63,924 nucleotides of DNA, taken from NCBI GenBank assembly GCA_050944915.1, contig JBMNRY010000001.1:1-63924 (forward strand), written 5' to 3'. Shown here piece after piece: positions 7,229 to 59,212 of this stretch; position 1 is the stretch's first letter, and each line of letters opens with the position of its first letter. The translations under genes were made by a program, and so were the position numbers. The notes under the pieces are model-generated. The model searched no databases and was not told the DNA's origin. It was given only the letters and a program-made list of their open reading frames with translations. Source of the DNA: Limnochordia bacterium. Its GTDB lineage: Bacteria > Bacillota > Limnochordia > JAAZLZ01.

Positions 7229-7240
7229 TAGAAATGGGTA

Positions 7241-7275
7241 GGGTCTATGGACAAACCATAGACCCTCTTTTTTTT
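7241..7275. terminator. bidirectional intrinsic terminator between the PPIase and mscS genes
   Basis: gggtctatgg-acaa-ccatagaccc followed by a T-run. Confidence 0.7.
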
Positions 7276-23194: not shown

Positions 23195-23244
23195 CTCAAA
23201 AGTATCCTTAGTCCCCGTAGTCTCCCACAGGGACTGAGTGCTTT

Positions 23245-23260
23245 TGTTCCACGTGGAACC
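23245..23260. promoter_or_regulatory. parS centromere-like site (copy 1, intergenic)
   Basis: TGTTCCACGTGGAACC against the Firmicute consensus TGTTNCACGTGAAACA. The 14-bp core is a perfect palindrome. Confidence 0.8.
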
Positions 23261-23266
23261 CTCTCT

Positions 23267-24118
23267 CTAATGACCGACGAGAGCTTCGATAATCCGATCG
23301 ATATCATCGATACTATAATACTCAATCTCGATCCGGCCGGCTGCTCGACCCCGGGGTTTGATTCGCACCTTGGTCCCTAAAGCCCGCTGCAGCTGATCTT
23401 CCACATCTATTAACTGGGGATCTCTGACCTTAGGGGCCCCTTTTGTTCCACGTGGAACCTTTTTACCCCGACTGGCCACCAGCTTTTCCGTATCGCGAAC
23501 CGATAAACCGCCCTCCACTACCTGTTGGGCGAGGGCCATTTGTTCCTCCCCCTGGAGGGCTAAGAGAACCTTAGCGTGTCCAGCGCTCAATTTCCCCTCC
23601 AAAAGCAGCTTCTGGACGGGAGCCGTTAAACTAAGTAACCGCAGGGCGTTGGCCACCGTAGGCCGCTTTTTGCCTACCATTTCCGCCACTTGCTCCTGGG
23701 TTAGACTCCCTGCTTCCATCAGACGGCGGTAGGCCTCAGCCTCTTCCAAAGGGTTTAGATCCTCCCTCTGGATATTCTCCACCAAGGCCTGGATCATCAT
23801 CTGGGAGTCGCTGACTTGCCGGACGATGACGGGCATCTTCTTCAAACCGGCCCGCTGGGCCGCCCGCCAACGGCGTTCCCCCACGATGAGGGTATACCCA
23901 TCCCCTTCCTTGCGCACCAACACCGGCTGGAGGACCCCTTGGCGGCCGATGGATTCCGCCAATTCCTCCAAAGCCTCCTCATCATAGGTGCGACGGGGTT
24001 GGTAAGGATTAGGTTTAATGGCACCTATATCTACTTCCCGGACTTCCTCGCCGGCAGGGATGGGACCTTCCGAGGGCATTAGGGCTCGCAATCCCTTACC
24101 GAGGACTTGTCGACTCAT
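23267..24118 (-). CDS. spo0J: chromosome partitioning protein ParB/Spo0J
   Basis: IKPNPYQPRRTYD ... GERRWRAA ... GKKRPTVANALRLL ... GHAKVLLAL. Confidence 0.95.
   Translation of the reverse strand: MSRQVLGKGLRALMPSEGPIPAGEEVREVDIGAIKPNPYQPRRTYDEEALEELAESIGRQGVLQPVLVRKEGDGYTLIVGERRWRAAQRAGLKKMPVIVRQVSDSQMMIQALVENIQREDLNPLEEAEAYRRLMEAGSLTQEQVAEMVGKKRPTVANALRLLSLTAPVQKLLLEGKLSAGHAKVLLALQGEEQMALAQQVVEGGLSVRDTEKLVASRGKKVPRGTKGAPKVRDPQLIDVEDQLQRALGTKVRIKPRGRAAGRIEIEYYSIDDIDRIIEALVGH
23444..23459. promoter_or_regulatory. parS centromere-like site (copy 2, inside spo0J)
   Basis: The 20-mer cttttgttccacgtggaacc is identical to the one at copy 1. Confidence 0.8.
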
Positions 24119-24873
24119 CTAGCCATCACTTCCTCTGCTAATTGCTCGTAGGCTTGGGCTCCCTTCGACTTAGGGTCGTAGTTGAGGATGGGCAAGCCAA
24201 AGCTGGGCGCCTCGCTGAGGCGGACGTTTCTGGGAATGACCGTCTGGTAAACCACATCACCGAAGACGCTGCGGACTTCTTCCACAACCTGTTGGGAAAG
24301 ATTGGTTCGGGCATCGTACATGGTCATCAAAACACCTTCGATAATGAGTTCAGGATTGAGATGTTCCCGCACCAAATCGATGGTCCGCATCAGTTGACTT
24401 AAACCTTCTAAGGCGTAATATTCACACTGGATAGGGACTAAAACGCCATCGGCCGCGGTCAACCCGTTGATGGTCAGCAGGCCCAAAGATGGCGGCGCAT
24501 CAATGAAAATAAATTCATAATCACTTTTCACCGCTTCCAAGGCTCGGCGTAAGCGAAACTCCCGGGAAATAACGGAAACTAGTTCCACCTCCGCTCCTGC
24601 CAACTCAATGGTCGCCGGCGCGACCTCTAAGTTCTCCACAGCGGTGGTCCGGATAATATTCCTTAAAGGTTGTCCCTCGATAAGAACCGAATACAGACAA
24701 CCTTCTAGCTCCCCTTTATCGATCCCCAAACCGCTGGATGCATTTCCCTGGGGATCCCCATCGATCAACAAAACCTTGGCACCTTTATGGGCCAGATAGG
24801 CACCGAGATTCACAGCCGTGGTACTTTTACCCACTCCACCCTTTTGATTAACGACAGCAAGTACTTTTCCCAT
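24115..24873 (-). CDS. soj: chromosome partitioning ATPase ParA/Soj
   Basis: VVNQKGGVGKSTTAVNLGAYLA, 252 aa, with a 4-nt overlap with spo0J. Confidence 0.95.
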   Translation of the reverse strand: MGKVLAVVNQKGGVGKSTTAVNLGAYLAHKGAKVLLIDGDPQGNASSGLGIDKGELEGCLYSVLIEGQPLRNIIRTTAVENLEVAPATIELAGAEVELVSVISREFRLRRALEAVKSDYEFIFIDAPPSLGLLTINGLTAADGVLVPIQCEYYALEGLSQLMRTIDLVREHLNPELIIEGVLMTMYDARTNLSQQVVEEVRSVFGDVVYQTVIPRNVRLSEAPSFGLPILNYDPKSKGAQAYEQLAEEVMAR

Positions 24874-24880
24874 CTAACCA

Positions 24881-25768
24881 CTACCCTTCTGTCTGACCCT
24901 TTTTGGCTTTGGCGATATGGATTTCGATGACCAGTTCATCTTCCCCTTCACTCCGCTGCCGCACATCGACGGCCAGGCCTGTCCTCTTTAGGCCCTCCGT
25001 TAACTTGTGTAAACTGTTCAAAAAGGGTCGGGTATCTTTGATGATCCCCACCCAGCTTTGTTTTCCTCGGGGTCTTTTCTCCCCTTCCAGGATGGTTTTC
25101 ACCATTCTTTCCGTGGCCTTTACACTAAGACCCTCCCCGATGATCCTCTCGAGGACCGCCATTTGCATTTCCCCGTCGGGTAGTCGCAGTAAAGCCCGGG
25201 CATGCCGTTCAGAAATCATTTCCCGGGAAATAATTTCTTGAATCTCCGGCGGCAACCGCAACAAACGCAGCCGATTGGCGATGGTCGATTGGGCACAGCC
25301 GATCCGTCGCGCTAACTCTTCTTGGGTAAATCCAAATTCCTCGATTAGCCGACGGTAGCCCTCTGCTTCCTCGAAAACATCCAGATCTTTGCGCTGAATG
25401 TTCTCGATTAGGGCCAACTCCGCAGTCGTTTGGTCGTCCATTTCCCGGACGATGGCGGGGATCCGCTCCCAACCGAGAGTTTGGCAAGCTCGCAGACGCC
25501 GTTCCCCGGCCACCAGCTGATACCCGTGGGGCACAGGCCGGACGACGATGGGGTGAAGGAGCCCGTGCTCCTCAATGGAGGCCGCCAATTCCGCCAACTC
25601 CGTCGGTTGGATCCGCCGCCGAGGTTGATAAGGGTTGGGTTCGATCTCGGCCGTGGGCAGAGATTCGACGCCCTCCCCATCGATATCGGCCCCTAGGTCA
25701 AGTTCCAGAGCCGAGGCCAACTCTTCCTCTCCTTTGGCCCGGGCCCGTAAGATATCTGTAAGTTTCAC
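24881..25768 (-). CDS. noc: nucleoid occlusion protein Noc (ParB paralog)
   Basis: IEPNPYQPRR ... GERRLRA ... QSTIANRLRLLRLPPEIQEII ... ISERHARALL, a Noc-type HTH signature. It lies between rsmG and soj. Confidence 0.85.
   Translation of the reverse strand: MKLTDILRARAKGEEELASALELDLGADIDGEGVESLPTAEIEPNPYQPRRRIQPTELAELAASIEEHGLLHPIVVRPVPHGYQLVAGERRLRACQTLGWERIPAIVREMDDQTTAELALIENIQRKDLDVFEEAEGYRRLIEEFGFTQEELARRIGCAQSTIANRLRLLRLPPEIQEIISREMISERHARALLRLPDGEMQMAVLERIIGEGLSVKATERMVKTILEGEKRPRGKQSWVGIIKDTRPFLNSLHKLTEGLKRTGLAVDVRQRSEGEDELVIEIHIAKAKKGQTEG
25218..25231. promoter_or_regulatory. perfect match to the Noc-binding-site palindrome
   Basis: ATTTCCCGGGAAAT read directly from the sequence, inside noc. 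Confidence 0.6.
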
Positions 25769-25957: not shown

Positions 25958-26683
25958 CTAGAGAGGCCTTTTCCGGGGAGCGCCCGGGCGGCGGGGGTAG
26001 TTAGGGGGTGTGGGTTTCATCTTGCCGACGAAGATTAGGGTCCGCCCTCCCCCACCAAAGGGCAACTGAACCCCTTTAATCTCCCGGATTTCTCCCCCCA
26101 GGATCTCGAGAGCCCTTTGAGCTGCGACCACCTCTTCTTGGGCTTCGGGGCCTTTAAGGGCGATAAAGGCTCCGCCCACCTTGACCAAAGGCAGACAGTA
26201 TTCCAAGAGCACCGGCAGGGAGGCTACGGCCCGGGCCACGACAAGATCGAAGTTGTCCCGGCAATCTTCCCGTTGACCCAGCTCTTCTGCCCGACCCCAA
26301 TGGACTTGGATCCCCTTCAGGCCCAGCTTAGTGATGGCCCCCTGGAGAAATTCCGTCTTCTTACCGACAGAATCAAGGAGGGTGACTTCCAACTCCGGCC
26401 GCCAAATCTTCAACGGTACCCCGGGAAAGCCGGCACCGGTGCCTACATCTAACAGGGTAACCGGGGATAGACCCTGGATTAGTGGAGCCACCGCGAGGGA
26501 ATCGAGGAAGTGTTTGACCGCCATCTCCTCCCAGTCGGTGATGGCTGTTAGATTCAGCTCTTCGTTCCCCTCTCTGACCAAACGGGCCCAAGCGACGCAT
26601 TGTTCCAGTTGTTCCTCGTCTAAAGTAAATCCCCACTGATCAAGACCGATCTGTAAAATATTTCGGAAGGCTTGCTCACCCAC
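25958..26683 (-). CDS. rsmG: 16S rRNA (guanine527-N7)-methyltransferase
   Basis: 241-aa ORF with the SAM motif LLDVGTGAGFPGVPLKI. Canonical gidB position. Confidence 0.95.
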   Translation of the reverse strand: MGEQAFRNILQIGLDQWGFTLDEEQLEQCVAWARLVREGNEELNLTAITDWEEMAVKHFLDSLAVAPLIQGLSPVTLLDVGTGAGFPGVPLKIWRPELEVTLLDSVGKKTEFLQGAITKLGLKGIQVHWGRAEELGQREDCRDNFDLVVARAVASLPVLLEYCLPLVKVGGAFIALKGPEAQEEVVAAQRALEILGGEIREIKGVQLPFGGGGRTLIFVGKMKPTPPNYPRRPGAPRKRPL

Positions 26684-28544
26684 CGACTTGCCGCCTCCTT
26701 TTTTCCAGGGCCACCATCAAGACGCTGATATCCGCGGGATTTACGCCGCTGATCCGGGAGGCCTGGCCTAAAGAATAGGGTCGAATAGCATTGAGCTTTT
26801 CTACTGCCTCGGTGCTCAAACCCGACACTTGACTGTAGTCCCAATCCTCCGGTAGCAAAATATTTTCCAAGTGCCGAAACCGCTGGACTAGCTGTTCCTC
26901 CTTAGCCAAGTAACCGGCGTACTTCACTTCTACCTCCAGAAGGGGTACCAACTCCTCCGGGAGGGGTTCCCCTCCTAAAAGGGGTGCAATATCCCCGTAG
27001 GCTACCTCCGGCCGCCGCAGCAGATGAGCTGCCGAAAGGGGACGTTTTAAGGGGGTTGATCCAATCTTTTCCATAAGCCTTTGGACATGGGCTTCGGGAT
27101 AGATTTGCTCTTCTTCCAGCTGCCTTTGGGTCCTTTTAATCTGTTCCCAACGGCGGCACATCCGATCATAATCGGCTGTATCCACTAAGCCGATCTCCCG
27201 GCCCAAAGCCATCAGTCGATAATCGGCATTATCTTGGCGTAAAGACAGGCGATATTCCACCCGGGAAGTCAGCATCCGGTAAGGCTCAGTGGTGCCTTTG
27301 GTGACTAAATCATCGATAAGCACCCCGATATAACCTTGATCCCGTCCCAGGACGATCCCTTCTTGGCCCCGATGTTTGCGAGCCACGTTGATACCCACCA
27401 ACAAGCCTTGAACTGCCGCTTCTTCATATCCGGAACTACCGTTAATTTGACCGGCAAAATAAAGACCGTCGATGGTTTTGCTTTCTAAAGTAGGTTTTAG
27501 ATAAGTGCTATCGATGGCATCATATTCAATGGCATAGCCGGGACGGGTAATCTCCGCCTTTTCCAAACCGGGGATGGAATGGATCATCTCCCATTGCACA
27601 TCTTCCGGCAGACTGGTAGCCACTCCCGCCAGGTAGACTTCCCTGGTATCCCGCCCATCGGGCTCCACAAAGACTTGGTGGATCCGACCGGGGAAGCGAT
27701 CGACCTTGGCTTCGATGGAAGGACAATACCGGGGACCGACACCGATGATCAGGCCTGAAAACATAGCCGCCCGTTGAATATTGCCCGCCACGATCTCTTC
27801 GGTGACCGGAGTGGTGAGGGTCAAATAACAAGGGGTTTGCTCCCTCAAAGCTAAGGGATGGCGGAAGGAAAAGCCCTCCGTCAGCTCGTCCCCCGGCTGA
27901 AGCTCCATTTTGCTGTAATCGATGGTCCGGCCATCGACCCGGGGGGAAGTGCCCGTTTTCAGCCTGATGATGGGATACTCCAACTCCTGGAGTTGTTCCG
28001 TCAAGGCACCGGAGCTCACCTGTCCGTTGGGCCCCGAGGGCCACTGGGCATCGCCGATGGAAATCGCGCCTCCTAAATAGGTGCCCGTCGCGAGTAAGAC
28101 CTGGGGAGCCCGCCAAATCTGGCCGCTGGCGGTGACTACACCTTGGACCCTCTGGCCTTTGATCAACAGGCGTTTGACCATCCCTTCCCGCAGATCTAAA
28201 AGGTCTTGGTTTTCCAACACCCGCTGCATCCGCCGTTGATAGGCCCGTCGATCCCCTTGGGCCCGCAGAGCCCTTACCGCCGGCCCTTTCCCTTTATTTA
28301 ACACCCGTATCTGAAGGGCGGTGGCATCGATGTTGATGGCCATTTCTCCCCCGAGGGCATCCAGTTCTCGGACCAGTTGGGCCTTGCCGGGACCACCGAT
28401 ACTGGGGTTGCAGTCCATAAAGGCCACCTTATCTAAATTTAGGGTCAACAACAGGGTGCGCAGGCCCAGCCGAGCCGCAGCCAAGGCTGCTTCACAACCG
28501 GCATGACCACCGCCGATGACGATGAAATCGTAATCCATGAGCAT
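26676..28544 (-). CDS. mnmG: MnmG/GidA paralog 2 (full length, diverged)
   Basis: An ATG at 28544 forms a TAATG overlap with the upstream copy. Sequence: [20 protein letters not shown] ... GPRYCPSIE ... GQINGSSGYEEAA ... EPYRMLTSR. The 707-aa ORF-track version is a stop-free upstream extension. Confidence 0.9.
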   Translation of the reverse strand: MLMDYDFIVIGGGHAGCEAALAAARLGLRTLLLTLNLDKVAFMDCNPSIGGPGKAQLVRELDALGGEMAINIDATALQIRVLNKGKGPAVRALRAQGDRRAYQRRMQRVLENQDLLDLREGMVKRLLIKGQRVQGVVTASGQIWRAPQVLLATGTYLGGAISIGDAQWPSGPNGQVSSGALTEQLQELEYPIIRLKTGTSPRVDGRTIDYSKMELQPGDELTEGFSFRHPLALREQTPCYLTLTTPVTEEIVAGNIQRAAMFSGLIIGVGPRYCPSIEAKVDRFPGRIHQVFVEPDGRDTREVYLAGVATSLPEDVQWEMIHSIPGLEKAEITRPGYAIEYDAIDSTYLKPTLESKTIDGLYFAGQINGSSGYEEAAVQGLLVGINVARKHRGQEGIVLGRDQGYIGVLIDDLVTKGTTEPYRMLTSRVEYRLSLRQDNADYRLMALGREIGLVDTADYDRMCRRWEQIKRTQRQLEEEQIYPEAHVQRLMEKIGSTPLKRPLSAAHLLRRPEVAYGDIAPLLGGEPLPEELVPLLEVEVKYAGYLAKEEQLVQRFRHLENILLPEDWDYSQVSGLSTEAVEKLNAIRPYSLGQASRISGVNPADISVLMVALEKRRRQVGG

Positions 28545-30427
28545 TAGCCTTCGCCCCCTGCCGCTTTCCGTTGGATCCCTTGGACGTAGACCGCCAAGAG
28601 GGAAACATCGGCCGGGGATACCCCTGCTACTCGGCTGGCCTGGCCGATGGAGCGAGGTTGAATCCGTTGGAGCTGTTCCCGGGCTTGGTTGCCTAAACCC
28701 CTGATGTGGCTGTAATCCATATCCGCGGGGATCCGCAGGGCTTCCAACTCCCGGAATTTGGCGATCTGTTTTTCTTGCCGGGAAATATAGCCGCTGCATT
28801 TCACTTCGATTTCGATTTCCTGTTCCAAAGCTTCATCATAGCGGGGAACTTCGGGCACGATACGGGGCAGATGGGCATAACTAATTTCCGGTCGCTGCAG
28901 GATGGCCGTTAAGGGCACCGGTTTAGCCAAATTCCCTGTCCCCAATTCCTTTAAGACATCCAAGACTCCTTCCGTAGGAGTCACTTGGATGCTTTCCAAG
29001 ATTTTTCGGGCTTCCTTGATGGTTTTTTCTTTTTTCCGGACCTTTTCATAGGCTTCTTCCGAAACTAAACCTAGTTTATATCCGATGGGGGTTAAACGGC
29101 GGTCCGCGTTATCCTGCCGCAAGAGCAAACGATACTCGGCCCGGGAGGTGAGCATGCGGTAGGGTTCATCGACACCTTTAGTGACTAGGTCATCGATTAA
29201 GACTCCGATGTAACCTTGGGAGCGATCGATGATGAAAGGCTCTTGACCTGCCACCTTCCGAGCGGCGTTAATACCGGCGATTAAACCTTGGGCCGCCGCC
29301 TCCTCATAACCGGAGGTACCGTTGATCTGGCCGGCGGTGAACAAACCGGAACAAACCTTGGTTTCCAAGGCCAAGGTTAACTGACTAGGATCGATGAAAT
29401 CGTATTCCACGGCGTAACCAGGGCGCATCATCCGGGCCCGCTGCAGCCCGGGAATAGTCCTGATGATCTCCTCTTGGACCCCTTCGGGCATGGCCGTGGT
29501 AAGACCCAAGAGATACATTTCCGTCGTGTATTCCCCTTCCGGCTCCACAAAAATTTGGTGGTCGACCTTGTCGGGGAAGCGGATCACCTTCCGGTCGATG
29601 GAGGGACAATGCCGGGGACCTTGACCGACAACGGAACCCATTTGGATGGGGGAAACCTCCAAGTACTTCCGCACCAGCTCGATGGTTTCTTCGGTAGTCC
29701 TAGTCAACCAACAGGGTAATTGCCGGTGGCGAATTTCCGGACTGTTGAAAGAAAAGGGTATGGGATGGGGACTGCCCTTTTGCTCCTGCATTTGACTAAA
29801 ATCGATGGTGCGGGCATCAACCCGAGGAGGTGTAGCCGTCTGAAAGCGGCGTAGTTCTAAGCCCAATCCTTCTAAAGAGGTCGATAGGGCTTCCGCGGCG
29901 ATCTCTCCTTGGCGCCCCCCGGGATAGCGGATCCGACCATTGACTAAGATCCCCCGCAAGAAGGTCCCTGGAGCTAAAACCACAGTCCGACAGGGGTAAA
30001 CCTGGCCGTTGATCGTTTTCACACCGCAAATGCGGCCTCCTTCCGTCAACAGCTCGGTGATCTGGCCCTGTTTGACCTCCAGATTTGGTTCCCTTTCTAA
30101 GACTAACGTCATTTCCCGCTGGTAGATGAGTTTATCGGCTTGAGCCCGCAAGGCCCACACCGCCGGTCCCCGGGATTTGTTTAAGATCCGTACGTTCAAA
30201 TAGGAACGGTCGATGACCTTACCCATTTCGCCCCCTAAGGCATCGATTTCCCGCACCAGGTGGCTTTTAGCCTGGGGTCCACCGATGGCCGGGTTACAAG
30301 ACATCCGGGCAATATTATCGATATTTATGGTAAAAATGGCTGTTCGACATCCCAGACGGGCGGCAGCCAGGGCCGCTTCACAACCGGCATGTCCCGCGCC
30401 GATGACGATGACATCATAGATTTCCAT
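28544..30427 (-). CDS. mnmG: tRNA uridine 5-carboxymethylaminomethyl modification enzyme MnmG/GidA (copy adjacent to mnmE)
   Basis: An ATG at 30427 sits 4 nt after GGGGGGAAGG. Sequence: [19 protein letters not shown] ... GPRHCPSID ... [13 protein letters not shown]. Confidence 0.93.
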
Positions 30428-30441
30428 GGAACCTTCCCCCC

Positions 30442-31806
30442 TCACTTACCGATACAAAACCGACTGAAGATTTCATCTAAAACTCCTTCTTGCACCGTTT
30501 CGCCGGTGATCTCTCCTAGGGATTCTAAGGCTTCCCGCAGATCAATACAGATGAAATCCTCGGCCCAGCCTTCCGCCACAGAGCGGCGGCTATCCTTGAT
30601 GGCCCCAAGGGCCCTTTCTAAAGCTTGGGCATGGCGGATATTCGTCACTAAAGCACCTTCCATCCCTAGACCCTTGGTGCCGAATTTATCGACGATGATT
30701 TCTTCCAGCCCTTCAAGACCCCAACCTTCCTTCAGGCTCATGGTCAATATGGGGCCAAGGCCCTGTTCTCGGAGCCTCTTTGGATCTATTTTAACATCTA
30801 AATCGGCCTTATTGATAATGGTAATAACCTCACGGCCGACCACTTTCTCAATCAATTGCCATTCATCAGGCCCCAATTCTTGGGAGCCGTCTAGGACTAG
30901 GAGGACCAAATCGGCCCGTTCAAGATAGGCGATACTCCGTTCCACCCCCAGCTGCTCCACCACATCGGAGGTAGCCCGCACCCCGGCGGTATCCGCCAGG
31001 CGCAAGGTGACACCACCGATATTGACCATCTCTTCGATGACATCTCTGGTGGTACCGGGAATGGCGGTGACGATGGCCCGCTCTTCCTGGAGAAGGGTGT
31101 TTAATAAAGTGGATTTGCCCACATTGGGGGGACCGATGATGACGGTGTAAACACCTTCCCGCAGCACCCGGCCCCGGCTGGCTCCTTCTAAAAGGCGGGC
31201 CACCTTCTTTTCGGCTCGGGAGAGAATTTCATCGATGGCTTCTCGCTCCATACCGGGGATATCATCTTCGGGAAAGTCCAAGAGGGCTTCTAGCTGGGCC
31301 AAAAGTTCGATCAATTCCCTTCGGATCTCGCCCATGTATTTGCCCAAGCCACCTTGTAATTGGGTCACCGCGGCCCGCATCCCTTGGTCGCTATGGGAGC
31401 GGATGATATCCAGGACTGCTTCCGCTTGGGTTAAATCGAGGCGACCGTTAAGAAAGGCTCGTTTGGTGAATTCCCCCGGTTCCGCCATCCGGACTCCCCG
31501 GGCTAAGACCAATTCTAAAATCCGCCGCACGGGGAGGCTTCCTCCATGGCAGTGGATTTCCACCACATCTTCCCGGGTGTAACTATGGGGGGCCCGCATG
31601 GCCACCACTAAGACTTCATCGATAGGATTTTCCCCATCATAAATATGGCCGTAGGCCATTTGGTGGCTTTTCAGCTTGGAAAGGGGGGTTTTTCCCCGGA
31701 ATATTTCTTCCACGATCCCGATCCCGTCCGGTCCACTGACCCGGATAATCCCGATTCCCCCCTCACCGGGGGCTGTGGCTATGGCCGCAATGGTATCCAG
31801 TTCCAT
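30442..31806 (-). CDS. mnmE: tRNA modification GTPase MnmE/TrmE
   Basis: [25 protein letters not shown] ... [12 protein letters not shown] ... C-terminal FCIGK. An alternative start 8 codons upstream lies at 31830. Confidence 0.95.
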
Positions 31807-33182: not shown

Positions 33183-33201
33183 TCCACCCCTGCCCTACCG
33201 T

Positions 33202-33465
33202 CTAATTAAGGGGATCGTATCCACCCGGGTGCCAAGGATGACATTTTCTTAGTCTTTTCCATGTTAAAACTAAACCCTGCCAGGGACCGTATTTGATTAC
33301 TGCTTGTCGAGCGTATTCAGAACAAGTTGGATAAAAACGGCAGGTACGTGGTTTTAAAGGGGAAAGACAATGACGGTAAATCCAAATTAAGCCGAGGAAC
33401 AACCTTTGGACCCCATTCCTCAGCATATTCCCCATACCGATTTCTGATACCCTAAAATTATTCAC
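33202..33465 (-). CDS. yidD: membrane protein insertion efficiency factor YidD
   Basis: [27 protein letters not shown] ... HPGGYDP. The start is uncertain: candidates are ATGs at 33435 or 33426, or a GTG at 33465. Confidence 0.88.
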
Positions 33466-33805
33466 AATTTAGCAACCCCACACCCCGGAGTAACTCCCTT
33501 AGACTACGGTAGAGCCCCTGGTAACTGGCCTTAGCGGCCTGAACCCGGGCGGAGATCACTACATCGCAATCGGTCTGCAATCTGGGGGCCAAATCCCGCC
33601 ATGCCTCTTGTAAGCGTCGCCTTACCTTATTCCTCGTTACCGCCTTGCCAACCCGCTTACTAACCGCTAAGCCCAAACGTCTGCCTTGGCCGCCATTTTC
33701 CAATGCATGAAGAACTAATAATCGATCGGCCCGACGTCGCCCTTGGGCAAAGACCTGTTTAAACTGATGAGATCGGCGCAACCGCGCTGCCGCAGGTAGG
33801 CCCAC
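33458..33805 (-). CDS. rnpA: ribonuclease P protein component
   Basis: 115-aa basic protein ([22 protein letters not shown]) directly downstream of rpmH. Confidence 0.9.
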
Positions 33806-33807
33806 TC

Positions 33808-33942
33808 TTAAGCAGACACCCGCTTGCGACCCTTAGCCCTTCTGCGGCTAACGACCCGGCGGCCCCCTGGGCTAGACATCCGGGCTAAGAATCCGTGTGT
33901 TCGTTTCCGTTTTAATACCTTGGGCTGGAACGTCCTCTTCAC
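33808..33942 (-). CDS. rpmH: 50S ribosomal protein L34
   Basis: Not in the ORF track. My own translation from a GTG start: [44 protein letters not shown], then stop. AGGAGG lies upstream. Confidence 0.95.
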
Positions 33943-33991
33943 CCGCCATTACCTCCTTTATGCGACAATTAGTCCATTAAACACCACTAAG

Positions 33992-34021
33992 ATTATAGCC
34001 CAAGGCCAAATAACCTGTCAA
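33992..34021 (-). promoter_or_regulatory. rpmH promoter
   Basis: The minus strand reads TTGACA-18 nt-TATAAT. Confidence 0.6.
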
Positions 34022-34141
34022 GCAATCGGCCTTTTCCTCCTCTTTTTTCTTCTTTTGGCCCTTCTTTCGTCGCTGCAAAAGGACTGTTCCAGCCCACTTA
34101 TCCTTGACGTTGTTGAAAAATCATAGTACGATCAAATCGCG

Positions 34142-34601
34142 TGTGGATAACTCCACCAGAATTTCTTTTTTCCAGAGGGGTTTCCACCGATGACCACAAC
34201 CTTAGAGGAATTATCCACAGATTGTGTAAAGTAGTGTGGATAACACCTAATTTGCCTTTAGAACTAACTTTTACCCTGTGGATAATTTTTATACACAGCC
34301 TTTCTGTGGGTTTTCAGTTATTTACCGTGCATTAGTCGCCCTCCAAAATCGCTATAAAGTGCCACAGCATGGGCCAAGGGGCAGGATCGAAGTCCTTGTG
34401 GATTTCCCTTGGCCTTTTCGTCCCCCACCACCAGGACTAAAAAGAGGGTAGGGGTTGTGGAAAACCTGTGCAAACTGTGAATTATCGACGGGAACCCGTT
34501 GTTGATAACTACTTGTACTTATGAACTTTGATCCTATGTAAAGTTGCTATTATTCGGGGGTTTTGCGGTTTTCCACAAGGATGAGTTCTGCCTGTGGATA
34601 A
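34142..34601. other. oriC DnaA-box cluster 1 (between rpmH and dnaA)
   Basis: Perfect TTATCCACA/TGTGGATAA boxes at 34142, 34211, 34235, 34277 and 34593. One-mismatch boxes at 34289, 34456, 34500 and 34569. Confidence 0.85.
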
Positions 34602-34675
34602 CCATTAGATTTCCCGGACCCCCCTTTTCCTTAGAGAATCAATTTTTCCCACCCACCAGGAGAGTAGGTAGATTC

Positions 34676-35506
34676 ATGGGTATATTTTCCCGGTTCTTCG
34701 GTCCAAAAAAAGAGCAAGGGGAGCCTGCGGCCCAGGAAGTTGAAGCCAGGATTGCCATTTACGACTCTCCCGGCGTCAGTCCCCGGCTAGTCTATGTCCA
34801 AGGGACCGATCCCGCATCCTTCATGGATGAAATCGCCTCTACCACCTATAATCTAGCCAAGGAAAAGGGCGGCCAGATACCTTTCACCGCCTTGAAAGAA
34901 ATCGCCGAAAACCTAATCCACGCCGACTTTTCCGAAGTGGTAATCACCATTTCCACCGATGGAAATACCATTACTTTTTCCGATAAAGGAAAAGGCATCG
35001 CCGATAAGGAAAAAGCTTTGTATCCCGGTTATTCCAGCGCCGATGGGAAGATCAAAGCCTACATCAAAGGTGTCGGTTCCGGATTACCGGTGGCCAAAGA
35101 AGCAGTAGCAGGCCTTGGTGGAAAACTCCTTTTAGATGATAATCTCCAAGGAGGGGCTGTGGTTACCCTCACCATCCCTGACCAGGAAGGGGAGGTGGCA
35201 GCCGATCTAGATCTAGATGAAGAGCAGCCCCAAACCCTCAGCGCCGATTCACCGCCTATCCATCCTGCGGCCCAAAATGCCGGCTTATCCCGGCGGCAAG
35301 AGACTATCTTCTTCCTTTTGGCCGACCATGGCGAAATAGGGCCTTCGGCGGTAGCCCGTCAGGCGGGGATCAGCCTTAGTACAGCTTATCGTGACCTGGT
35401 CTTTTTAGAACAACTAGGTTTACTAGAAGCAAAGGCTAACGGCAAAAGGGTAGTGACAGCCCAAGGACAAGCTTTGTTAAAGAAGATGCGGGCCCAGCAC
35501 CGCTAG
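34676..35506 (+). CDS. uncharacterised GHKL (histidine-kinase-like) ATPase domain protein with a C-terminal winged-HTH
   Basis: N-box EIAENLIHA, G1 SDKGKGI, G2 GVGSGLPVAKE, an acidic linker, and the HTH segment IGPSAVARQAGISLSTAYRDLVFLEQLGLL. The ATG at 34676 is preferred over the ORF-track start at 34544. Confidence 0.6.
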   Translation: MGIFSRFFGPKKEQGEPAAQEVEARIAIYDSPGVSPRLVYVQGTDPASFMDEIASTTYNLAKEKGGQIPFTALKEIAENLIHADFSEVVITISTDGNTITFSDKGKGIADKEKALYPGYSSADGKIKAYIKGVGSGLPVAKEAVAGLGGKLLLDDNLQGGAVVTLTIPDQEGEVAADLDLDEEQPQTLSADSPPIHPAAQNAGLSRRQETIFFLLADHGEIGPSAVARQAGISLSTAYRDLVFLEQLGLLEAKANGKRVVTAQGQALLKKMRAQHR

Positions 35507-35536: not shown

Positions 35537-36874
35537 ATGACCGACCAATTGAAAATCATCTGGGACCAAACCTTGAACATCATAAAACAGGAGTTGACTA
35601 AACCTAGTTTCGATACCTGGCTGAAGGATACCAAGGCTGTATCCTATGCCGATAATTGTTTAGTCGTGACCAGTCCCAATGAATTCGCCCGGGACTGGGT
35701 GGAAGCCCGTTACAAAGAATCATTAGAAGAAGCCCTCCACCAGGTAGTGGGAGATCAATGGCAGATTTCCTTCGTCGTTCCCGATGAGGGCCAACCGATG
35801 GATAAGCTTCCTTCCAAACCGCCAAAACCAAAGGAAGAGCCCCATGCCGCCAATCTTAATCCCCGGTATACCTTCGATACCTTCGTCGTCGGCAGCAGTA
35901 ACCGCTTCGCCCATGCGGCTTCTTTAGCGGTGGCGGAAGCACCGGCCCGAGCCTACAACCCCCTGTTCATCTACGGAGGTGTCGGTTTGGGTAAAACCCA
36001 TTTAATGCAAGCCATCGGCCATTACGGACTGGAACATCATCCCGGCATCCGGGTCGTCTACGTCTCTTCAGAGACTTTTACCAACGATTTGATCGCCGCC
36101 ATCGGCCGCAAAGCGATGAATGAGTTTCGGGCGAAATACCGTAATGCCGATATCCTCCTCATCGACGATATCCAATTCGTCGCCGGGAAAGAATCGACCC
36201 AAGAGGAGTTTTTCCACACCTTTAACTCCCTCTATGAGGCTAATAAGCAGATCGTCATTTCCAGTGATCGGCCGCCGAAGGAAATACCAACTTTGGAAGA
36301 ACGGTTGCGTTCCCGTTTCGAATGGGGACTCACCGCCGATATCCAAGTTCCCGATGTGGAAACGAGGATCGCTATCCTCCAGCGAAAGGCTAAAGACGAT
36401 GGATTGAATATCGATGATGAGATCCTTTCTTATATTGCTGAGCAGGTGGAATCCAATATTAGAGAATTGGAAGGGGCCCTAAATAAAGTGGTCGCCTATG
36501 CCTCCCTGCAAGGACGGAATATCACCATCAACTTAGCCTCCGAAGCTTTGAAAGATATGTTGGCGGCCAATCGCAAAAAACCCATCGATATTAAAATGAT
36601 CCAAGAAATCGTCGCCGATTATTATGGGATTAATATCAGTGATATGTCCACCAGAAAGCGGACTAAAGCCATCGTCCTGCCTCGGCAGGTGGCCATGTAT
36701 CTTTCCCGGGATCTCACCGATGCCTCGCTGCCAAAAATCGGCGAAGCCTTCGGCGGTCGAGACCATAGTACCGTCATCCACGCTTGTGAAAAGGTGGCTA
36801 ATGATATGGCTAAAGACCCGGCCTTTTTTCGCGAGATCGAAGAGATCACCGAACAAATAAAACAACGAACTTAG
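35537..36874 (+). CDS. dnaA: chromosomal replication initiator protein DnaA
   Basis: 445-aa ORF: NPRYTFDTFVVGSSNRFAHAA ... GGVGLGKTHLMQAIG ... LLIDDIQF ... DHSTVIHA. Confidence 0.98.
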   Translation: MTDQLKIIWDQTLNIIKQELTKPSFDTWLKDTKAVSYADNCLVVTSPNEFARDWVEARYKESLEEALHQVVGDQWQISFVVPDEGQPMDKLPSKPPKPKEEPHAANLNPRYTFDTFVVGSSNRFAHAASLAVAEAPARAYNPLFIYGGVGLGKTHLMQAIGHYGLEHHPGIRVVYVSSETFTNDLIAAIGRKAMNEFRAKYRNADILLIDDIQFVAGKESTQEEFFHTFNSLYEANKQIVISSDRPPKEIPTLEERLRSRFEWGLTADIQVPDVETRIAILQRKAKDDGLNIDDEILSYIAEQVESNIRELEGALNKVVAYASLQGRNITINLASEALKDMLAANRKKPIDIKMIQEIVADYYGINISDMSTRKRTKAIVLPRQVAMYLSRDLTDASLPKIGEAFGGRDHSTVIHACEKVANDMAKDPAFFREIEEITEQIKQRT

Positions 36875-39906: not shown

Positions 39907-42873
<2,967 letters not shown>

Positions 42874-54941: not shown

Positions 54942-55033
54942 GGAGGGATACCCAAGTCGGCTGAAGGGGACGGTTTGCTAAACCGTTAGTAGGGGCAACT
55001 CTAGCGCGGGTTCGAATCCCGCTCCCTCCGCCA
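54942..55033 (+). tRNA. tRNA-Ser (anticodon GCU)
   Basis: Acceptor ggaggga/tccctcc, anticodon loop uuGCUaa, long variable arm, T-loop ttcgaat, encoded CCA. Confidence 0.9.
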
Positions 55034-55046
55034 TGAGATAAGGATT

Positions 55047-55072
55047 ACGGGTTGAGCAAACCCGCTTTTTCT
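55047..55072 (+). terminator. terminator after tRNA-Ser(GCU)
   Basis: cgggtt-gagca-aacccg followed by cTTTTT. Confidence 0.6.
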
Positions 55073-55097
55073 TTCTCCGGCAGAATCACCAGCTCCC

Positions 55098-55126
55098 TTG
55101 ACAAAGGCCTTGGGATATGGTATTCT
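55098..55126 (+). promoter_or_regulatory. candidate promoter of tRNA-Arg(GCG)
   Basis: TTGACA-17 nt-TATTCT. Confidence 0.45.
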
Positions 55127-55147
55127 AGCATACGATCAGAATAGTGT

Positions 55148-55224
55148 GCGCCCGTAGCTCAGTTGGATAGAGCGTTGGTTTGCGGAGCCAAAGGTCAGAG
55201 GTTCGAGCCCTCTCGGGCGTGCCA
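55148..55224 (+). tRNA. tRNA-Arg (anticodon GCG as read)
   Basis: 77 nt. Acceptor gcgcccg/cgggcgt, D-arm gctc-agttggata-gagc, anticodon loop uuGCGga, T-loop ttcgagc, encoded CCA. Confidence 0.88.
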
Positions 55225-55285: not shown

Positions 55286-55996
55286 CTAAATTTCAAATTG
55301 GATCTCTACTTGGCTGGTGACCACCACCGGCCCCAGTTTGATGGGGGCCATCCCGTCGGCGACGAAGAAGTTGACACCTTGGATCTGGGAGTGATCGGCC
55401 ACCGAATGGATACCTTTGATTTCAATCCCTAAGGCATTAGCGATGGCTTCTCCCTTTTCATGGGCCTTTTGGACGGCTAAATCCAGGGCCTGTAGTTCCC
55501 AATCGGGCACATCTTCCACCGTCAATTCGATACTACTAATGGTATTAGCCCCGGCTTTGACTGCTGTATCGAGGATCAAACCGATGGCATCTAATTCATC
55601 GGTGGTAATGGTTACTTCATTGATCACCCGGTAACCGACGATACCTTCGTATTCCGGACCATATTGTCCTTGGGGTTGCACTTCGAAACGGGAGGTGCGC
55701 ACTGCATCTTCGGGGATTCCTAAACGGCTTAATTCCCCTAGGACCCGGCCCATGATGCGGCTGTTTTCTTCTTGGGCTTCCTGGGCCACGGAGTGGTGGG
55801 TTTCCACACCGAGGCGGATCATGGCCCCATCGGGTTCTACTTCCAGTTGGGCCTGGCCGGTGACGATGATTTGCCGTACATCGGTAGCTTGACCCCGGAC
55901 GACAGGACGGCTGGACCAGCCGAATAAGAGGAGGAGGAGAATCAGGGAAAGGAGGGCCATCCGGCCTAACCAATTGGTGCTCTGCAATCGAATCAC
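55286..55996 (-). CDS. SIMPL/DUF541-domain secreted protein
   Basis: 236-aa ORF with a signal anchor. Sequence: IIVTGQAQLEVEPDGAMIRLGVET ... RTSRFEVQPQ. Confidence 0.8.
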   Translation of the reverse strand: MIRLQSTNWLGRMALLSLILLLLLFGWSSRPVVRGQATDVRQIIVTGQAQLEVEPDGAMIRLGVETHHSVAQEAQEENSRIMGRVLGELSRLGIPEDAVRTSRFEVQPQGQYGPEYEGIVGYRVINEVTITTDELDAIGLILDTAVKAGANTISSIELTVEDVPDWELQALDLAVQKAHEKGEAIANALGIEIKGIHSVADHSQIQGVNFFVADGMAPIKLGPVVVTSQVEIQFEI

Positions 55997-56177
55997 CCCT
56001 TGGGATTTAGATAAAGATCACTTCGATGCGGGAAAGGCCGATCCCTAGCCCGGAGAAACTGCTAGTCTTGACTATTGGCGGGAAGTTCCACAAGGATTTG
56101 GCAGGACTGGAATGACTATGTAACGAATTATGGGGAAGATATGGGTCCACGCCCAGGGATTAGGGGAGGCCTGCCTA

Positions 56178-58901
56178 GTGAGTAAGAAAATACTATTGCT
56201 CATCGCCGCCATCGGGTTACCTATGCTCTTGGCGCCGTTGGTCTTCGCGGAGACGGTCACGGTGGAGACGGAGCATTTTTATATACACCATCCTGTCGAT
56301 GCCCCAAGGGGTGCTCAAGAGGCCGCCCTTTGGGCCGAGTATTTTTTTGAACAACTTACGGAATTAGGAGCGCCGCCACCTGCCGATAAAACCCATTTAG
56401 TCCTAATCGATGAGGGGGATCAGCCTGATGGCTATGCGTCCCCCTATTTGCTTAATGTCATGGGCGTCAGCCTGGTTGGCCCCAAGGATCGCTCGGAGTT
56501 ATACCCTGTTGGTCAAAGCTGGCTGGCCCTAGTCATCTCCCACGAGCTCACCCATATTTTCCAGATGAATATGAGCGGGGGGCAGGCCGATAGCCTTCGC
56601 AGCGCCTTCGGTCGGGTACCTATTTTAACTAGCCCCAATGCCTTACTGCCCGGTTGGTTTGTGGAAGGGGCCGCCGTTTATTACGAGAGCCTGTTAACCG
56701 ATGCCGGTCGGGCGACCAGTGGTATTTATGATATGTATTTGCGGATGCTGGCCCTAGAAGATGACTTCTACACCAGCCATCAGGTAGCCAATGATTATCT
56801 CTTAGATACATGGCCTGGTCCCCAAAGGATTTATATTTACGGTTTGAGTCTCGTCCGATATCTAGTGGAAACCTTTGGCGAAGATGTGGTTTGGCAGATC
56901 AGCGCCGCCTATGCCGAAGCACCCCTAGCTGGATTTGAAGAGGTAGTAGAAGAAACCCTGGAAATACCCTTTGCTGAGCTTTGGGCAGGGTGGCAGGCTT
57001 GGTTGAAGGAGCAAAGCCTTGCTACTGCCGAGGCCATAAAGGAGCGGGGTCTCATAGAAGGGGAGCAAATCACTTCTTACGGATTCCATATGGGCCCCCC
57101 AGCCCTTTCCTCCGGGGGAAGTTTAGCCTTTGCCCGCTACGGCCAAGGAATTCCCGGCCTGTGGTTACGGGATGGGCAAGGCCGAGATAAATTGATCGCC
57201 AAAGGCCTCATTGGGATGACGGGGAAGTATAGTTTTCATCCCCGGGAGGAGATCCTTGTTTATCCCCAACTGGTGGAACATCAGGGTAAGTTGATAAATG
57301 ATCTCTTTCTTTATGATCTGAAGAAAGGCCAAACCCGCCGGTTGACCTATGGTCGACGGGCCGATGATCCAGCATGGGACCCCGCCGGGGAATGGCTGGG
57401 CTTCATCGCCCGCAGCGGTGACGGCAGCCCCCAAATGGTCCTTCGCCATAGAAGCAGCGGTGAAGAGAAGATCATCTTGTCCACCAATCAAGAGACCATC
57501 CTCTCGGGGTTAAGCTGGTCCTCCGATGGTACTCGATTGTTGACGACGGTCTGGCAGCAAACGGGCGGCGGCCTTTTAATCTATGATCTGGCCACATCCC
57601 AGTGGCAGCTTTTCACCGGGGAACATCATCCCCTCGGTGCCGTATGGTTCGGAGACGAACAGGTGATTTATAGTTCTGCCCCCACAGGTATCTTTAATCT
57701 TTATGCGTTAGAGCTGGCCACAGGCCAGGTTTACCAGCTGACCAACACCATCGGTGGTGCCTTCCATCCCGCGGTTGATGCCCAGACCGGTGATCTTTAT
57801 TACCTGGGTTACCACGCCGGTGGCTATGATATTTATCATCTAGAAAAGGATAATCTAGCCTGGTGGGAGATCGGTCAGCTCGCCGTCCAAGTCGGTCGTG
57901 ATTGGCCGGAGGATGGGCCTATGGAGATGGCTTTGGATTCCCGGGGCTATAACCCTTGGGAATGGATGGGTCCTGTCTATTGGTGGCCCACCATCGGGGA
58001 AGGTAGTGATGGCCAACGGGTTGGTTTGGGGACTAGCGCCATGGATCCCTTAGGCAGACAGCAATATGCCCTCGACGTCTTTTTCGGGATCGGCGATGCC
58101 CCCAGCGGTTATCGGCTCCAATACCTTCACCGCTTCGGTCCCGATGGAGGTACCGCGGTGGGATTGAGTCTGCAGGAGGAATTGTCTGCCTTAACCAGTA
58201 ACCAAGCTTTTCGGGAGCGGCAATGGAGCCTCGACTTAGAACTGCCCGTCAGCAGTGGACCGCTACACCGGCAGAGTCTGTTGTTGTCGGGACGGGTGAT
58301 CCAAGATTTAACTGCTTCCGGTCAGACTAGTTACCTAGCCCTAGGCGGTTGGACGGGGCAGAATTTAGCCGCCGGTGGTCCCCGGTGGACCTATCGCCAA
58401 GGAGCGCAAATCTACGGTGGTTCTCTGTGGGAAGAGGAGGGGACCATCTTCGGTCGGGGAGAGTATAAAGGTTATTTAGAACTACCTCGGGGGGCGGCCT
58501 TGGCTCTACGGGTTAGCGGCGGAATGGCCGAGGAGGAGGATTTCTTCAGCCTCGGCGGTGCTGCGGAACACTATCTTGGAAACTTTTCCCTGCGGGCTTA
58601 TCCCCAGGATTATGCCTATGGTGCCAAAGCCTTCCGGGCCACCTTGGAGTACCGTCAGCTTCTATGGGCTATCCACCAAGGTATCTGGGATCGTTTAACC
58701 CTGGTCCTTTACGGCGAAGGGGGCGATGTGTGGAACCAAGGGGAGGAGATGGAGCTGCTCCGTTCCGCGGGTGTCGAGTTGGTCTTGCGGCAGGTATGGT
58801 ATCATCGCTTCCCCAGCCAATGGCGGGTAGGAGTAGCCCGGGCCTTCGATCATCCCGATGAGGCATGGCGGGCTTATCTAGGGACGGGCTTCGCCTTTTA
58901 G
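56178..58901 (+). CDS. secreted multidomain protein: Peptidase_MA-like HExxH domain + PD40/TolB-type beta-propeller + Omp85-like C-terminal beta-barrel
   Basis: A GTG at 56178 sits 7 nt after GGGGAGG. Signal peptide KKILLLIAAIGLPMLLAPLVFA. Motif HELTHIF ... WFVEGAAVYYE. Repeated PD40-like blocks are present. The C-terminus reads SLRAYP ... LYGEGGDVWN ... AGVELVLR ... YLGTGFAF. Confidence 0.6.
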   Translation: MSKKILLLIAAIGLPMLLAPLVFAETVTVETEHFYIHHPVDAPRGAQEAALWAEYFFEQLTELGAPPPADKTHLVLIDEGDQPDGYASPYLLNVMGVSLVGPKDRSELYPVGQSWLALVISHELTHIFQMNMSGGQADSLRSAFGRVPILTSPNALLPGWFVEGAAVYYESLLTDAGRATSGIYDMYLRMLALEDDFYTSHQVANDYLLDTWPGPQRIYIYGLSLVRYLVETFGEDVVWQISAAYAEAPLAGFEEVVEETLEIPFAELWAGWQAWLKEQSLATAEAIKERGLIEGEQITSYGFHMGPPALSSGGSLAFARYGQGIPGLWLRDGQGRDKLIAKGLIGMTGKYSFHPREEILVYPQLVEHQGKLINDLFLYDLKKGQTRRLTYGRRADDPAWDPAGEWLGFIARSGDGSPQMVLRHRSSGEEKIILSTNQETILSGLSWSSDGTRLLTTVWQQTGGGLLIYDLATSQWQLFTGEHHPLGAVWFGDEQVIYSSAPTGIFNLYALELATGQVYQLTNTIGGAFHPAVDAQTGDLYYLGYHAGGYDIYHLEKDNLAWWEIGQLAVQVGRDWPEDGPMEMALDSRGYNPWEWMGPVYWWPTIGEGSDGQRVGLGTSAMDPLGRQQYALDVFFGIGDAPSGYRLQYLHRFGPDGGTAVGLSLQEELSALTSNQAFRERQWSLDLELPVSSGPLHRQSLLLSGRVIQDLTASGQTSYLALGGWTGQNLAAGGPRWTYRQGAQIYGGSLWEEEGTIFGRGEYKGYLELPRGAALALRVSGGMAEEEDFFSLGGAAEHYLGNFSLRAYPQDYAYGAKAFRATLEYRQLLWAIHQGIWDRLTLVLYGEGGDVWNQGEEMELLRSAGVELVLRQVWYHRFPSQWRVGVARAFDHPDEAWRAYLGTGFAF

Positions 58902-59033: not shown

Positions 59034-59055
59034 CCCTCAGCCGAGGGCTTTTTTT
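59034..59055 (+). terminator. terminator after tRNA-Arg(CCU)
   Basis: ccctc-agcc-gaggg followed by cT7. Confidence 0.7.
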
Positions 59056-59212
59056 ATTCCTTACTTGAGCCACTTCTGGGAACCTTTGGCAGAAAACAAT
59101 GGGGCATTCCATTGGAGGTAATTTTTATCTAAACTAGAATTATTGAACTACTAATGAGACCCATGGAAGAGCCTGTCTATGAGAGGGCCGATGATCGGGG
59201 AGGAGTGTTCTT

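Follow-up and report, generated by a model that had tools for sequence, protein, structure and literature searches.

A divergent WD40-Omp85 protein with a predicted metallopeptidase domain, a TolB-like propeller and an outer-membrane barrel in a Limnochordia bacterium

What would a bacterium do with a single polypeptide that reads, from one end to the other, as a signal peptide, a zinc peptidase, a beta-propeller and an outer-membrane beta-barrel? The question is raised by one gene in a 63,924-nucleotide stretch of DNA (the window, here and below, means this whole stretch: positions 1 to 63,924 of contig JBMNRY010000001.1, assembly GCA_050944915.1, forward strand) from the metagenome-assembled genome of a Limnochordia bacterium. 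A first-pass annotation had described the product as a chimeric envelope protein in which protease and propeller take the place of the polypeptide-transport-associated (POTRA) domains that precede the barrel in known Omp85 proteins. By the architecture and the phyla shared among its homologs, the protein is a genuine, divergent Limnochordia-lineage member of a subfamily that has already been catalogued, the WD40-Omp85 proteins. The best explanation of the whole, to which we assign a probability of roughly 0.55, is that it is an outer-membrane-anchored, periplasm-facing metallopeptidase that processes envelope proteins or controls their quality.

The gene itself poses few difficulties (Table 1). 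Its frame opens with an ATG at position 56130, and a GTG at 56178 is favoured as the start codon because it is preceded at 8 nt by a Shine-Dalgarno-like sequence; the N-terminus that results also lines up with the homolog N-termini in the family alignment. There are no internal stop codons across the 2,724 nt, and the product is identical (100%) to an NCBI entry, 'hypothetical protein ACOYD6_00315 [Limnochordia bacterium]'. The predicted Sec signal peptide would be cleaved before the residues ETV, judging from the VFA-E pattern, and its region is modelled as an N-terminal helix (residues 2-18) at low confidence.

Much of the evidence rests on an alignment of the protein with 18 homologs of 19-48% identity. 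Eleven columns are invariant among the 18 (E123, H126, E163, G164, A166, Y219, G222, R394, P599, G865 and F907), and H122 is kept in 17 of them. The motifs that the first-pass annotation had quoted all occur at the expected places in the translation, and the retention of their key residues across homologs this divergent indicates that they exceed chance matches. When the homologs are scanned with Pfam, PD40 is detected in 16 of the 18, the Omp85 family PF01103 in five (best 7e-13) and Peptidase_MA_2 in three (best 4e-07), so that all three families are matched among the homologs and not by the single sequence. An AlphaFold2 (AF2) model of the full-length protein, built from the family alignment, has a mean predicted local distance difference test (pLDDT) score of 83.2 and a predicted template modelling (pTM) score of 0.85. 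It comprises a mixed alpha/beta and then helical region (residues 25-292), an all-beta region (residues 297-574), a junction of 28 residues and 16 long strands (residues 603-903). Homolog profiles, the AF2 model and Foldseek together bear out the order of four modules first proposed: signal peptide, gluzincin, propeller and Omp85 barrel.

The propeller is the sole module that is statistically detectable from the single sequence, with an NCBIfam TolB match at 7e-14 and a sequence match to TolB in the Protein Data Bank (PDB) at 1e-08. The family profile raises the PDB match to TolB to 3.5e-55 and also finds tricorn protease and S9 oligopeptidases, and Foldseek places TolB at 1.5e-08 among PDB structures, so that the proposed TolB/PD40-type assignment stands. 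DSSP assigns 26 strand segments to residues 297-574 of the model, which would correspond to about six four-stranded blades. The likeness to TolB extends to the propeller fold and the PD40 repeats; however, only residues ~145-400 of TolB are matched, the N-terminal domain of TolB has no counterpart here, and the propeller instead stands between a peptidase and a barrel in one chain. The protein is not an equivalog of TolB, nor of the Deinococcus BamA, since its NCBIfam scores are far below threshold for both (51.5 bits against a cutoff of 343.15 for TIGR02800, and 15.9 bits against 1050 for the BamA model).

Between propeller and barrel the AF2 model has a linker of 28 residues and no other segment. 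A Pro/Trp-rich junction runs through its end into the first barrel strand, with P599 invariant and Y591 nearly invariant among the 18 homologs and P593 invariant in an 8-sequence subset of the alignment. POTRA (PF07244) was detected neither in the protein at E ≤ 1 nor in the 18 homologs at E ≤ 0.01 in Pfam searches, in agreement with the proposal that protease and propeller stand in its place.

The C-terminal region, which had been likened to Omp85/BamA from the motifs of its last strands, is modelled as a barrel with 16 strands of at least 6 residues (DSSP) between residues 603 and 903. Its best Foldseek matches in the PDB are Pseudomonas aeruginosa TamA (8us3, 1.5e-07) and Deinococcus radiodurans BamA (8xnb, 1.2e-06, target template modelling (TM) score 0.55), with Flavobacterium johnsoniae BamA and Escherichia coli TamA (4c00) among the further matches. 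The family profile also reaches a POTRA-domain Omp85 protein (9ccg, 9.7e-06), over the C-terminal barrel of the latter, and TamA (1e-04). Taken with the PF01103 matches among the homologs, these results identify the segment as an Omp85-type membrane barrel. Shared with BamA and TamA are the 16 strands, an Arg-x-aromatic motif in loop 6, an acidic residue on strand 13 and a C-terminal aromatic residue with a Gly three residues before it, whereas here POTRA is absent and the N-terminal part consists of enzyme and propeller.

Loop 6 of Omp85 barrels carries the lid-lock motif (L/M/V)RG(W/Y/F), and strand 13 carries its counterpart FxDxG (PMC11358297). Most members of the present family have VRGY, VRGF or LRGY in loop 6, and the Limnochordia clade has LRAY, a Gly to Ala change; the family motif on strand 13 is F-x-(D/E)-x-G-x-A-W (consensus LFxDxGxAW), and the window protein has YGEGGDVW. 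These conservative variants lie at the correct topological positions and keep the Arg and its acidic partner, in sequences that are non-canonical. The protein ends ...YLGTGFAF, and a terminal Phe is found in 80 of the 96 full-length tripartite representatives described below.

Modelled separately, the N-terminal domain (pLDDT 85) is most similar in Foldseek searches to the peptidase domains of M9 clostridial collagenases (5e-06, TM ~0.56; 4ar1, ColH, is among the top matches), followed by the M1 aminopeptidases ERAP1, ERAP2 and IRAP (~3e-05), and the M30 peptidase lugdulysin was matched as well. The resemblance lies in the catalytic fold and in the arrangement of HExxH, downstream Glu and Tyr; it differs from these domains in that sequence similarity falls below the family thresholds, the spacer between HExxH and Glu is longer and the activator domain of the collagenases is absent. 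A profile of the domain found nothing significant among PDB sequences, the best being the M1 aminopeptidase 3cia at E 0.56, where the motifs are in register (HELAH with HELTH, WLNEGFTSYVE with WxxEGxAxYxE, and PYVKG with Y219-x-x-G) at the level of motifs only. From these correspondences E163 is the probable third zinc ligand and Y219 the probable transition-state-stabilising tyrosine. Family M1 is defined by a GxMEN motif upstream of HExxH and by an HExxH-X18-E spacing. The GxMEN exopeptidase motif is absent from the family alignment, where the corresponding strand is conserved as [ND]-G-[YF]-A-[ST]-P and lacks the Glu, and because of this absence the protein is not called an aminopeptidase here. 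The assignment to the Peptidase_MA-type gluzincins, made at the outset from HELTH and the downstream Glu motif, agrees both with these folds and with the Peptidase_MA_2 matches among the homologs. HExxH is present in all of 147 further representatives, which, together with the persistence of the fusion described below, suggests that purifying selection maintains catalysis in the fused protein. On the strength of these conserved residues the gluzincin is likely to be active.

The combination of domains is not new. In their census of the Omp85/TpsB superfamily, Heinz and Lithgow (2014; PMC4104836) distinguished a 'WD40-Omp85' subfamily whose propeller is most like TolB, and listed the architectures that join PF01103 and PF07676 (their Table S2). 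For each member that they examined with Phyre2, their Table S3 gives a BamA/TamA template (4k3b, 4c00), a TolB template (2w8b, 2ivz) and a 'best aminopeptidase hit' (1z5h, 4kxd, 4fgm or the collagenase 4ar1) at a confidence of at least 99%; 4ar1 is also a top match of the N-terminal model here. Myxococcus, Rhodothermus and Vibrio metschnikovii are among the bearers that the census names, and H1XQ58 and D0MEQ5 among its member accessions. A 2024 paper restates that such proteins carry "divergent WD40 and peptidase domains" (PMC11358297). The novelty implied by the first-pass annotation therefore falls away, and its label 'chimeric' misleads, because the architecture is ancient, fixed and widespread. 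The window protein repeats the domain order and composition of the catalogued subfamily: no POTRA, an M1/M9-type peptidase, a TolB-like propeller and a BamA/TamA-like barrel. It differs in its sub-threshold PD40 repeats, its degenerate lid-lock motifs and a barrel of 333 residues, as against 351-417 in all but one relative outside its clade, and Limnochordia were not found to be discussed for the subfamily in the 2014 census (PMC4104836).

How widespread the fusion is can be gauged from a search with the profile of the N-terminal domain against 1.84 billion representatives (clusters at 50% identity), which gave 12,382 matches at E ≤ 1e-3 and 4,332 at E ≤ 1e-30. Among 147 new top representatives that were examined, all three modules are present in 96 of the 97 that reach at least 850 residues, and the remainder, which are shorter, form a continuum of lengths of the kind that truncated metagenomic fragments would give. 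The fusion is obligate. At least 318 species-representative genomes hold a relative, according to a search built on the 8-sequence subset of the alignment. Taxonomy was taken from the 80 best of these genomes, which belong mostly to Gemmatimonadota/Longimicrobiales, Nitrospirota, Acidiferrobacterales, Anaeromyxobacter, Sericytochromatia, Acidobacteriota, Rokubacteria and Atribacteria; the 80 include one other Bacillota metagenome-assembled genome (locus L002, 51% identity, partial). Few database entries belong to the Limnochordia-type clade, which comprises, beside the window protein and L002, the relatives P0002 and P0003, found in biogas and digester metagenomes at 46-47% identity, and the identity of the window protein to the family outside this clade is 23-31%.

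How might such a protein work? An outer membrane is documented for the host lineage: cultured Limnochordia strains show one by transmission electron microscopy, and clusters of outer-membrane markers occur in all 46 UBA genomes of Taib et al. (as reported in PMC11456536). Following export by Sec, the barrel would be inserted by the barrel assembly machinery (BAM) into the outer membrane of this diderm Firmicute. In Omp85 proteins both termini of the barrel face the periplasm, and therefore the peptidase and propeller would hang in the periplasm beneath it. The protein would then be a zinc endo- or oligopeptidase tethered to the membrane, with the propeller serving as a substrate-binding or gating platform, as in tricorn and the S9 peptidases, and the barrel as an anchor and possibly also as a docking site at its lateral gate. 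Its likeliest task would be to process envelope proteins or exert quality control over them on the inner face of the outer membrane, and a single chain would do the work that E. coli divides among BepA, BamB and BamA. Of these, BepA is a zinc metalloprotease that has a protein-interaction domain, docks on BAM and breaks down substrates that have stalled (PMC13067283). The analogy is functional only: both would place a periplasmic HExxH protease and an interaction domain at an Omp85 barrel (PMC13067283), whereas BepA belongs to family M48, uses tetratricopeptide repeats and not a propeller, is a separate soluble protein and has no detected homology to the window protein.

A bolder form of this mechanism supposes that the barrel is a working lateral gate which passes stalled or misfolded outer-membrane proteins, or a dedicated client, to the gluzincin in cis, with the propeller as the sensor. 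This is tentative, and we consider it unlikely. If true, one protein would serve by itself as both insertase and quality-control protease, merging the roles of BamA, BamB and BepA, which could matter especially in Terrabacteria-type diderms such as Limnochordia if, as we assume, these lack the proteobacterial accessory factors.

Several observations count against the reading of the protein as a periplasm-facing peptidase. No family reached its gathering threshold when the single sequence was scanned with Pfam (E-values of 0.078 for Peptidase_M9, 0.11 for Peptidase_MA_2 and 0.87 for PD40, none of them significant), the PD40 repeats of the window protein being among those below threshold, and it is for this reason that the modules were established through homologs, profiles and structure. 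The lid-lock motifs are degenerate (LRAY, YGEGG). H126 and E163 are 36 residues apart, which is longer than the range of roughly 18-30 residues that separates HExxH and Glu in families M1, M4 and M9. That the N-terminal domains face the periplasm is an assumption carried over from other Omp85 proteins, and localisation, topology, activity and substrates are all matters that we infer. No gene partner common across phyla emerged from 84 loci, in which synteny is lineage-specific only, and the literature searched holds no functional or experimental work on WD40-Omp85 or TolB-like Omp85 proteins beyond the 2014 census and passing mentions.

Could the enzyme instead face outwards? Heinz and Lithgow raised for enzyme-bearing Omp85 proteins, by analogy with the patatin-like PlpD, the idea of a type Vd-like system in which the barrel exports its own N-terminal domains (PMC4104836). 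The window protein would then be a surface-displayed or secreted protease, degrading extracellular proteins for nutrition or remodelling an S-layer or other surface. That the best structural matches of the N-terminal domain are secreted M9 collagenases is in keeping with such a role, as is the description of Limnochordia as degraders of complex organic matter (PMC11456536). PlpD-type proteins likewise have an enzyme domain N-terminal to an Omp85 barrel (PMC4104836, PMC11358297), but they keep POTRA between the passenger and the barrel (PMC11358297) and their passenger is a secreted lipase, whereas here POTRA is not detectable, the enzyme is a different one and there is an additional propeller. 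The linker between propeller and barrel is only ~28 residues long, conservation at the lid-lock of loop 6 and strand 13 suggests a closed pore, and a compact propeller with a 270-residue helical domain would make a large passenger, for which no site of cleavage or release was seen. Export by its own barrel is accordingly quite unlikely in our view. Less probable again is that the protein has no proteolytic role and is an assembly factor for outer-membrane proteins, its propeller (like BamB) and peptidase-like domain being a docking scaffold for a BamA/TamA-like insertase. A 'BamA-BamB fusion' was indeed proposed for the WD40-Omp85 cluster (PMC4104836), the hallmarks of Omp85 are kept (16 strands, the loop-6 and strand-13 motifs and a G-x-x-F C-terminus) and the barrel's structural matches, BamA and TamA, are insertases. 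The conservation of the H, E, H, E and Y set in divergent members, with HExxH in 147 of 147, is however hard to explain for a pure scaffold, and the propeller is of the TolB/PD40 type with about six blades, unlike the eight-bladed BamB. An assembly role is in any case compatible with proteolysis and does not exclude it.

A further alternative takes its cue from the neighbours of the gene in Gemmatimonadota, where it lies beside genes for AnmK (10 loci), a MurQ-like SIS protein (18 loci) and an M20 peptidase (16 loci). The first two of these we take to be peptidoglycan-recycling genes. On this account the propeller binds a peptidoglycan-associated partner or muropeptides, and the gluzincin, at the inner face of the outer membrane, trims stem peptides of peptidoglycan or the tethers between outer membrane and peptidoglycan; TolB has the peptidoglycan-binding lipoprotein Pal as its partner, and it was once suggested to take part in peptidoglycan recycling (cited in PMC4104836). 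The synteny is limited to that one phylum, being absent from the window (where SIMPL, Rrf2, tRNAs and an efflux pump are found instead) and from the Nitrospirota loci, and the N-terminal domain resembles the protein- and peptide-cleaving M9, M1 and M30 families and not known peptidoglycan peptidases, so that we place a cell-wall function below both of the preceding proposals. Last, the protein might be an artefact, either a fusion created in assembly or annotation or a soluble protein with a beta-rich C-terminus. The source is a metagenome-assembled genome and the single-sequence Pfam scan gave no significant match, which could invite such a doubt, but it deserves next to no credence: the same colinear architecture recurs in independent assemblies (that of P0002 on 4 contigs), at least 318 species genomes have it, as do 96 of the 97 full-length representatives, the frame is open throughout and the 16-strand, TamA/BamA-like barrel is confidently modelled. 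The three findings that would have refuted the first-pass proposal, a C-terminus other than a membrane barrel, a monoderm organism and a fusion made in assembly, did not materialise.

Table 1. Coordinates of the gene, the modules and motifs of its product, and the flanking elements in the window
Feature	Residues	Positions	Strand	Evidence or remark
SIMPL/DUF541 gene with N-terminal hydrophobic leader, divergently transcribed		55286-55996	-	Pfam SIMPL 7e-42
Open frame		56130-58901	+	ORF (open reading frame) translation
Shine-Dalgarno-like GGGGAGG, 8 nt 5' of GTG		56163-56169	+	read from sequence
Coding sequence, GTG start	1-907	56178-58901	+	stop codon 58899-58901
Predicted Sec signal peptide, MSKKILLLIAAIGLPMLLAPLVFA/ETV	1-24	56178-56249 (56250 is the first base after)	+	translation; lipobox Cys absent
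Clan MA gluzincin (thermolysin-like) peptidase domain	25-292	56250-57053	+	N-domain model, Foldseek, Peptidase_MA_2 in 3/18 homologs
HExxH zinc-binding/catalytic motif HELTH (H122, E123, H126)	122-126	56541-56555	+	invariance in alignment, H122 17/18
WFVEGAAVYYE motif, 33 residues after H126	160-170	56655-56687	+	family alignment; E163, G164, A166 invariant
Y219 of Y-x-x-G	219	56832-56834	+	family alignment; Y219 and G222 invariant
TolB/PD40-type beta-propeller	297-574	57066-57899	+	NCBIfam, PDB, family profile, Foldseek, DSSP
Propeller motif LTYGRR...SGDG	389-416			
Propeller motif LSWSSDGTRLL	445-455			
Propeller motif FHPAVDAQTGDLYYLGY	529-545			
Pro/Trp-rich junction YNPWEWMGPVYWWPT, before and into barrel strand 1		57948-57992	+	conserved Y591, P593, P599
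Omp85-type outer-membrane beta-barrel, 16 strands	603-907	57984-58898	+	AF2, Foldseek, family profile, PF01103
Extracellular loop 6, between strands 11 and 12 (LRAY 805-808)	785-816	58530-58625	+	DSSP, family alignment
Barrel motif SLRAYP	804-809			
Barrel motif LYGEGGDVWN	844-853			
YGEGG on strand 13, variant of FxDxG (Asp to Glu)		58710-58724	+	family alignment, strand assignment
Barrel motif AGVELVLR	864-871			
C-terminal beta-signal GTGFAF, terminal Phe	902-907	58881-58898	+	F907 invariant in 18-homolog alignment
tRNA-Arg(CCT), 49 nt after stop codon		58950-59024	+	ARAGORN
Hairpin and T-run, terminator-like		59034-59056	+	terminator scan

The surroundings of the gene show that it is chromosomal and native to its host. 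It lies ~20 kb from dnaA, dnaN, gyrB and gyrA, its G+C content is like that of its surroundings, and in relatives at 47% identity it keeps its synteny with SerS, Rrf2 and SIMPL. The G+C match, the location in the core region of the origin and the conserved synteny led us to reject a mobile island or a recent horizontal transfer; an ancient transfer into Limnochordia may have taken place. The adjacent, divergently transcribed SIMPL gene is found in 5 of 5 Bacillota-type loci (the window, L002 and L081-L083; in the last three at 1422-2303, 7100-7981 and 1636-2517, respectively), with SerS and Rrf2 conserved nearby, and the pairing was seen in no other phylum sampled. It suggests a clade-specific co-regulation or functional link between two envelope proteins. 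The pair is bracketed by tRNA genes, those upstream being tRNA-Ser(GCT) and tRNA-Arg(GCG) within 54942-55224; it shows no signs of an island, because its G+C content matches that of its neighbours and the pair is conserved in relatives. Co-transcription with the HlyD/resistance-nodulation-division (RND) efflux genes downstream was rejected, since the tRNA-Arg gene and the terminator-like hairpin intervene.

Elsewhere the neighbourhood changes with the lineage. At the locus of the closest relative, from a biogas metagenome (L081, 5217-9869, minus strand), the gene is followed by a weak DUF1302 match, a LolA-like TP_0789 gene, an MMPL/RND exporter and a TetR regulator, which looks like a cassette for the export of envelope lipids or lipoproteins and differs from the HlyD/RND pump of the window. 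In the Gemmatimonadota/Longimicrobiales loci (L013-L079) the AnmK, MurQ-like and M20 peptidase genes form a conserved block with the homolog (example coordinates are 2309-3493 in L079, 4750-5721 in L042, 161-1351 in L071 and 8982-11588 in L030); the block also holds an unannotated multi-pass membrane protein of 579 residues, and a class II ribonucleotide reductase lies downstream.

The window as a whole covers the chromosomal origin region, with a sign change in GC skew at ~34-36 kb and the genes parB, parA, rsmG, two mnmG, mnmE, jag, yidC, dnaA, dnaN, recF, gyrB and gyrA. The probable replication origin is at ~33200-35500, between yidC, jag and mnmE on the minus strand and dnaA (35537-36874), dnaN, recF, gyrB and gyrA on the plus strand; just upstream of dnaA lies an open reading frame (34544-35506) with HATPase_c as its sole domain. 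The gyrB gene (39946-42873, plus strand, 975 residues) has an intein between its Toprim and C-terminal GyrB domains (Intein_splicing 1e-15, residues 555-837). On the minus strand, tandem full-length mnmG/gidA paralogs (26676-30445) stand beside mnmE and rsmG, each with the GIDA, GIDA_C_1st and SAM_GIDA_C domains (1e-150 and 1e-154); the true start of the downstream copy is probably internal, because its listed start overlaps the upstream copy. Two ParB-family genes (23267-24118 and 24881-25768), one of them probably Noc-like, flank ParA within 22058-25768 (minus strand), a segment that also includes an extra ParA/MinD-like ATPase (22058-23194) with an N-terminal PilZ-related domain.

Taken alone the gene changes little, but its subfamily counts among the larger classes of outer-membrane protein that still lack characterisation. 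Targets for mutagenesis that follow from the profile, the models and the map of motifs are E123, H122/H126, E163, Y219, R806/E846 and F907. For the host, the occurrence of the protein in Limnochordia adds an Omp85 protein other than BamA to the outer-membrane inventory of the diderm Firmicutes, in a lineage on which much of the debate over outer-membrane loss in monoderm Firmicutes turns.

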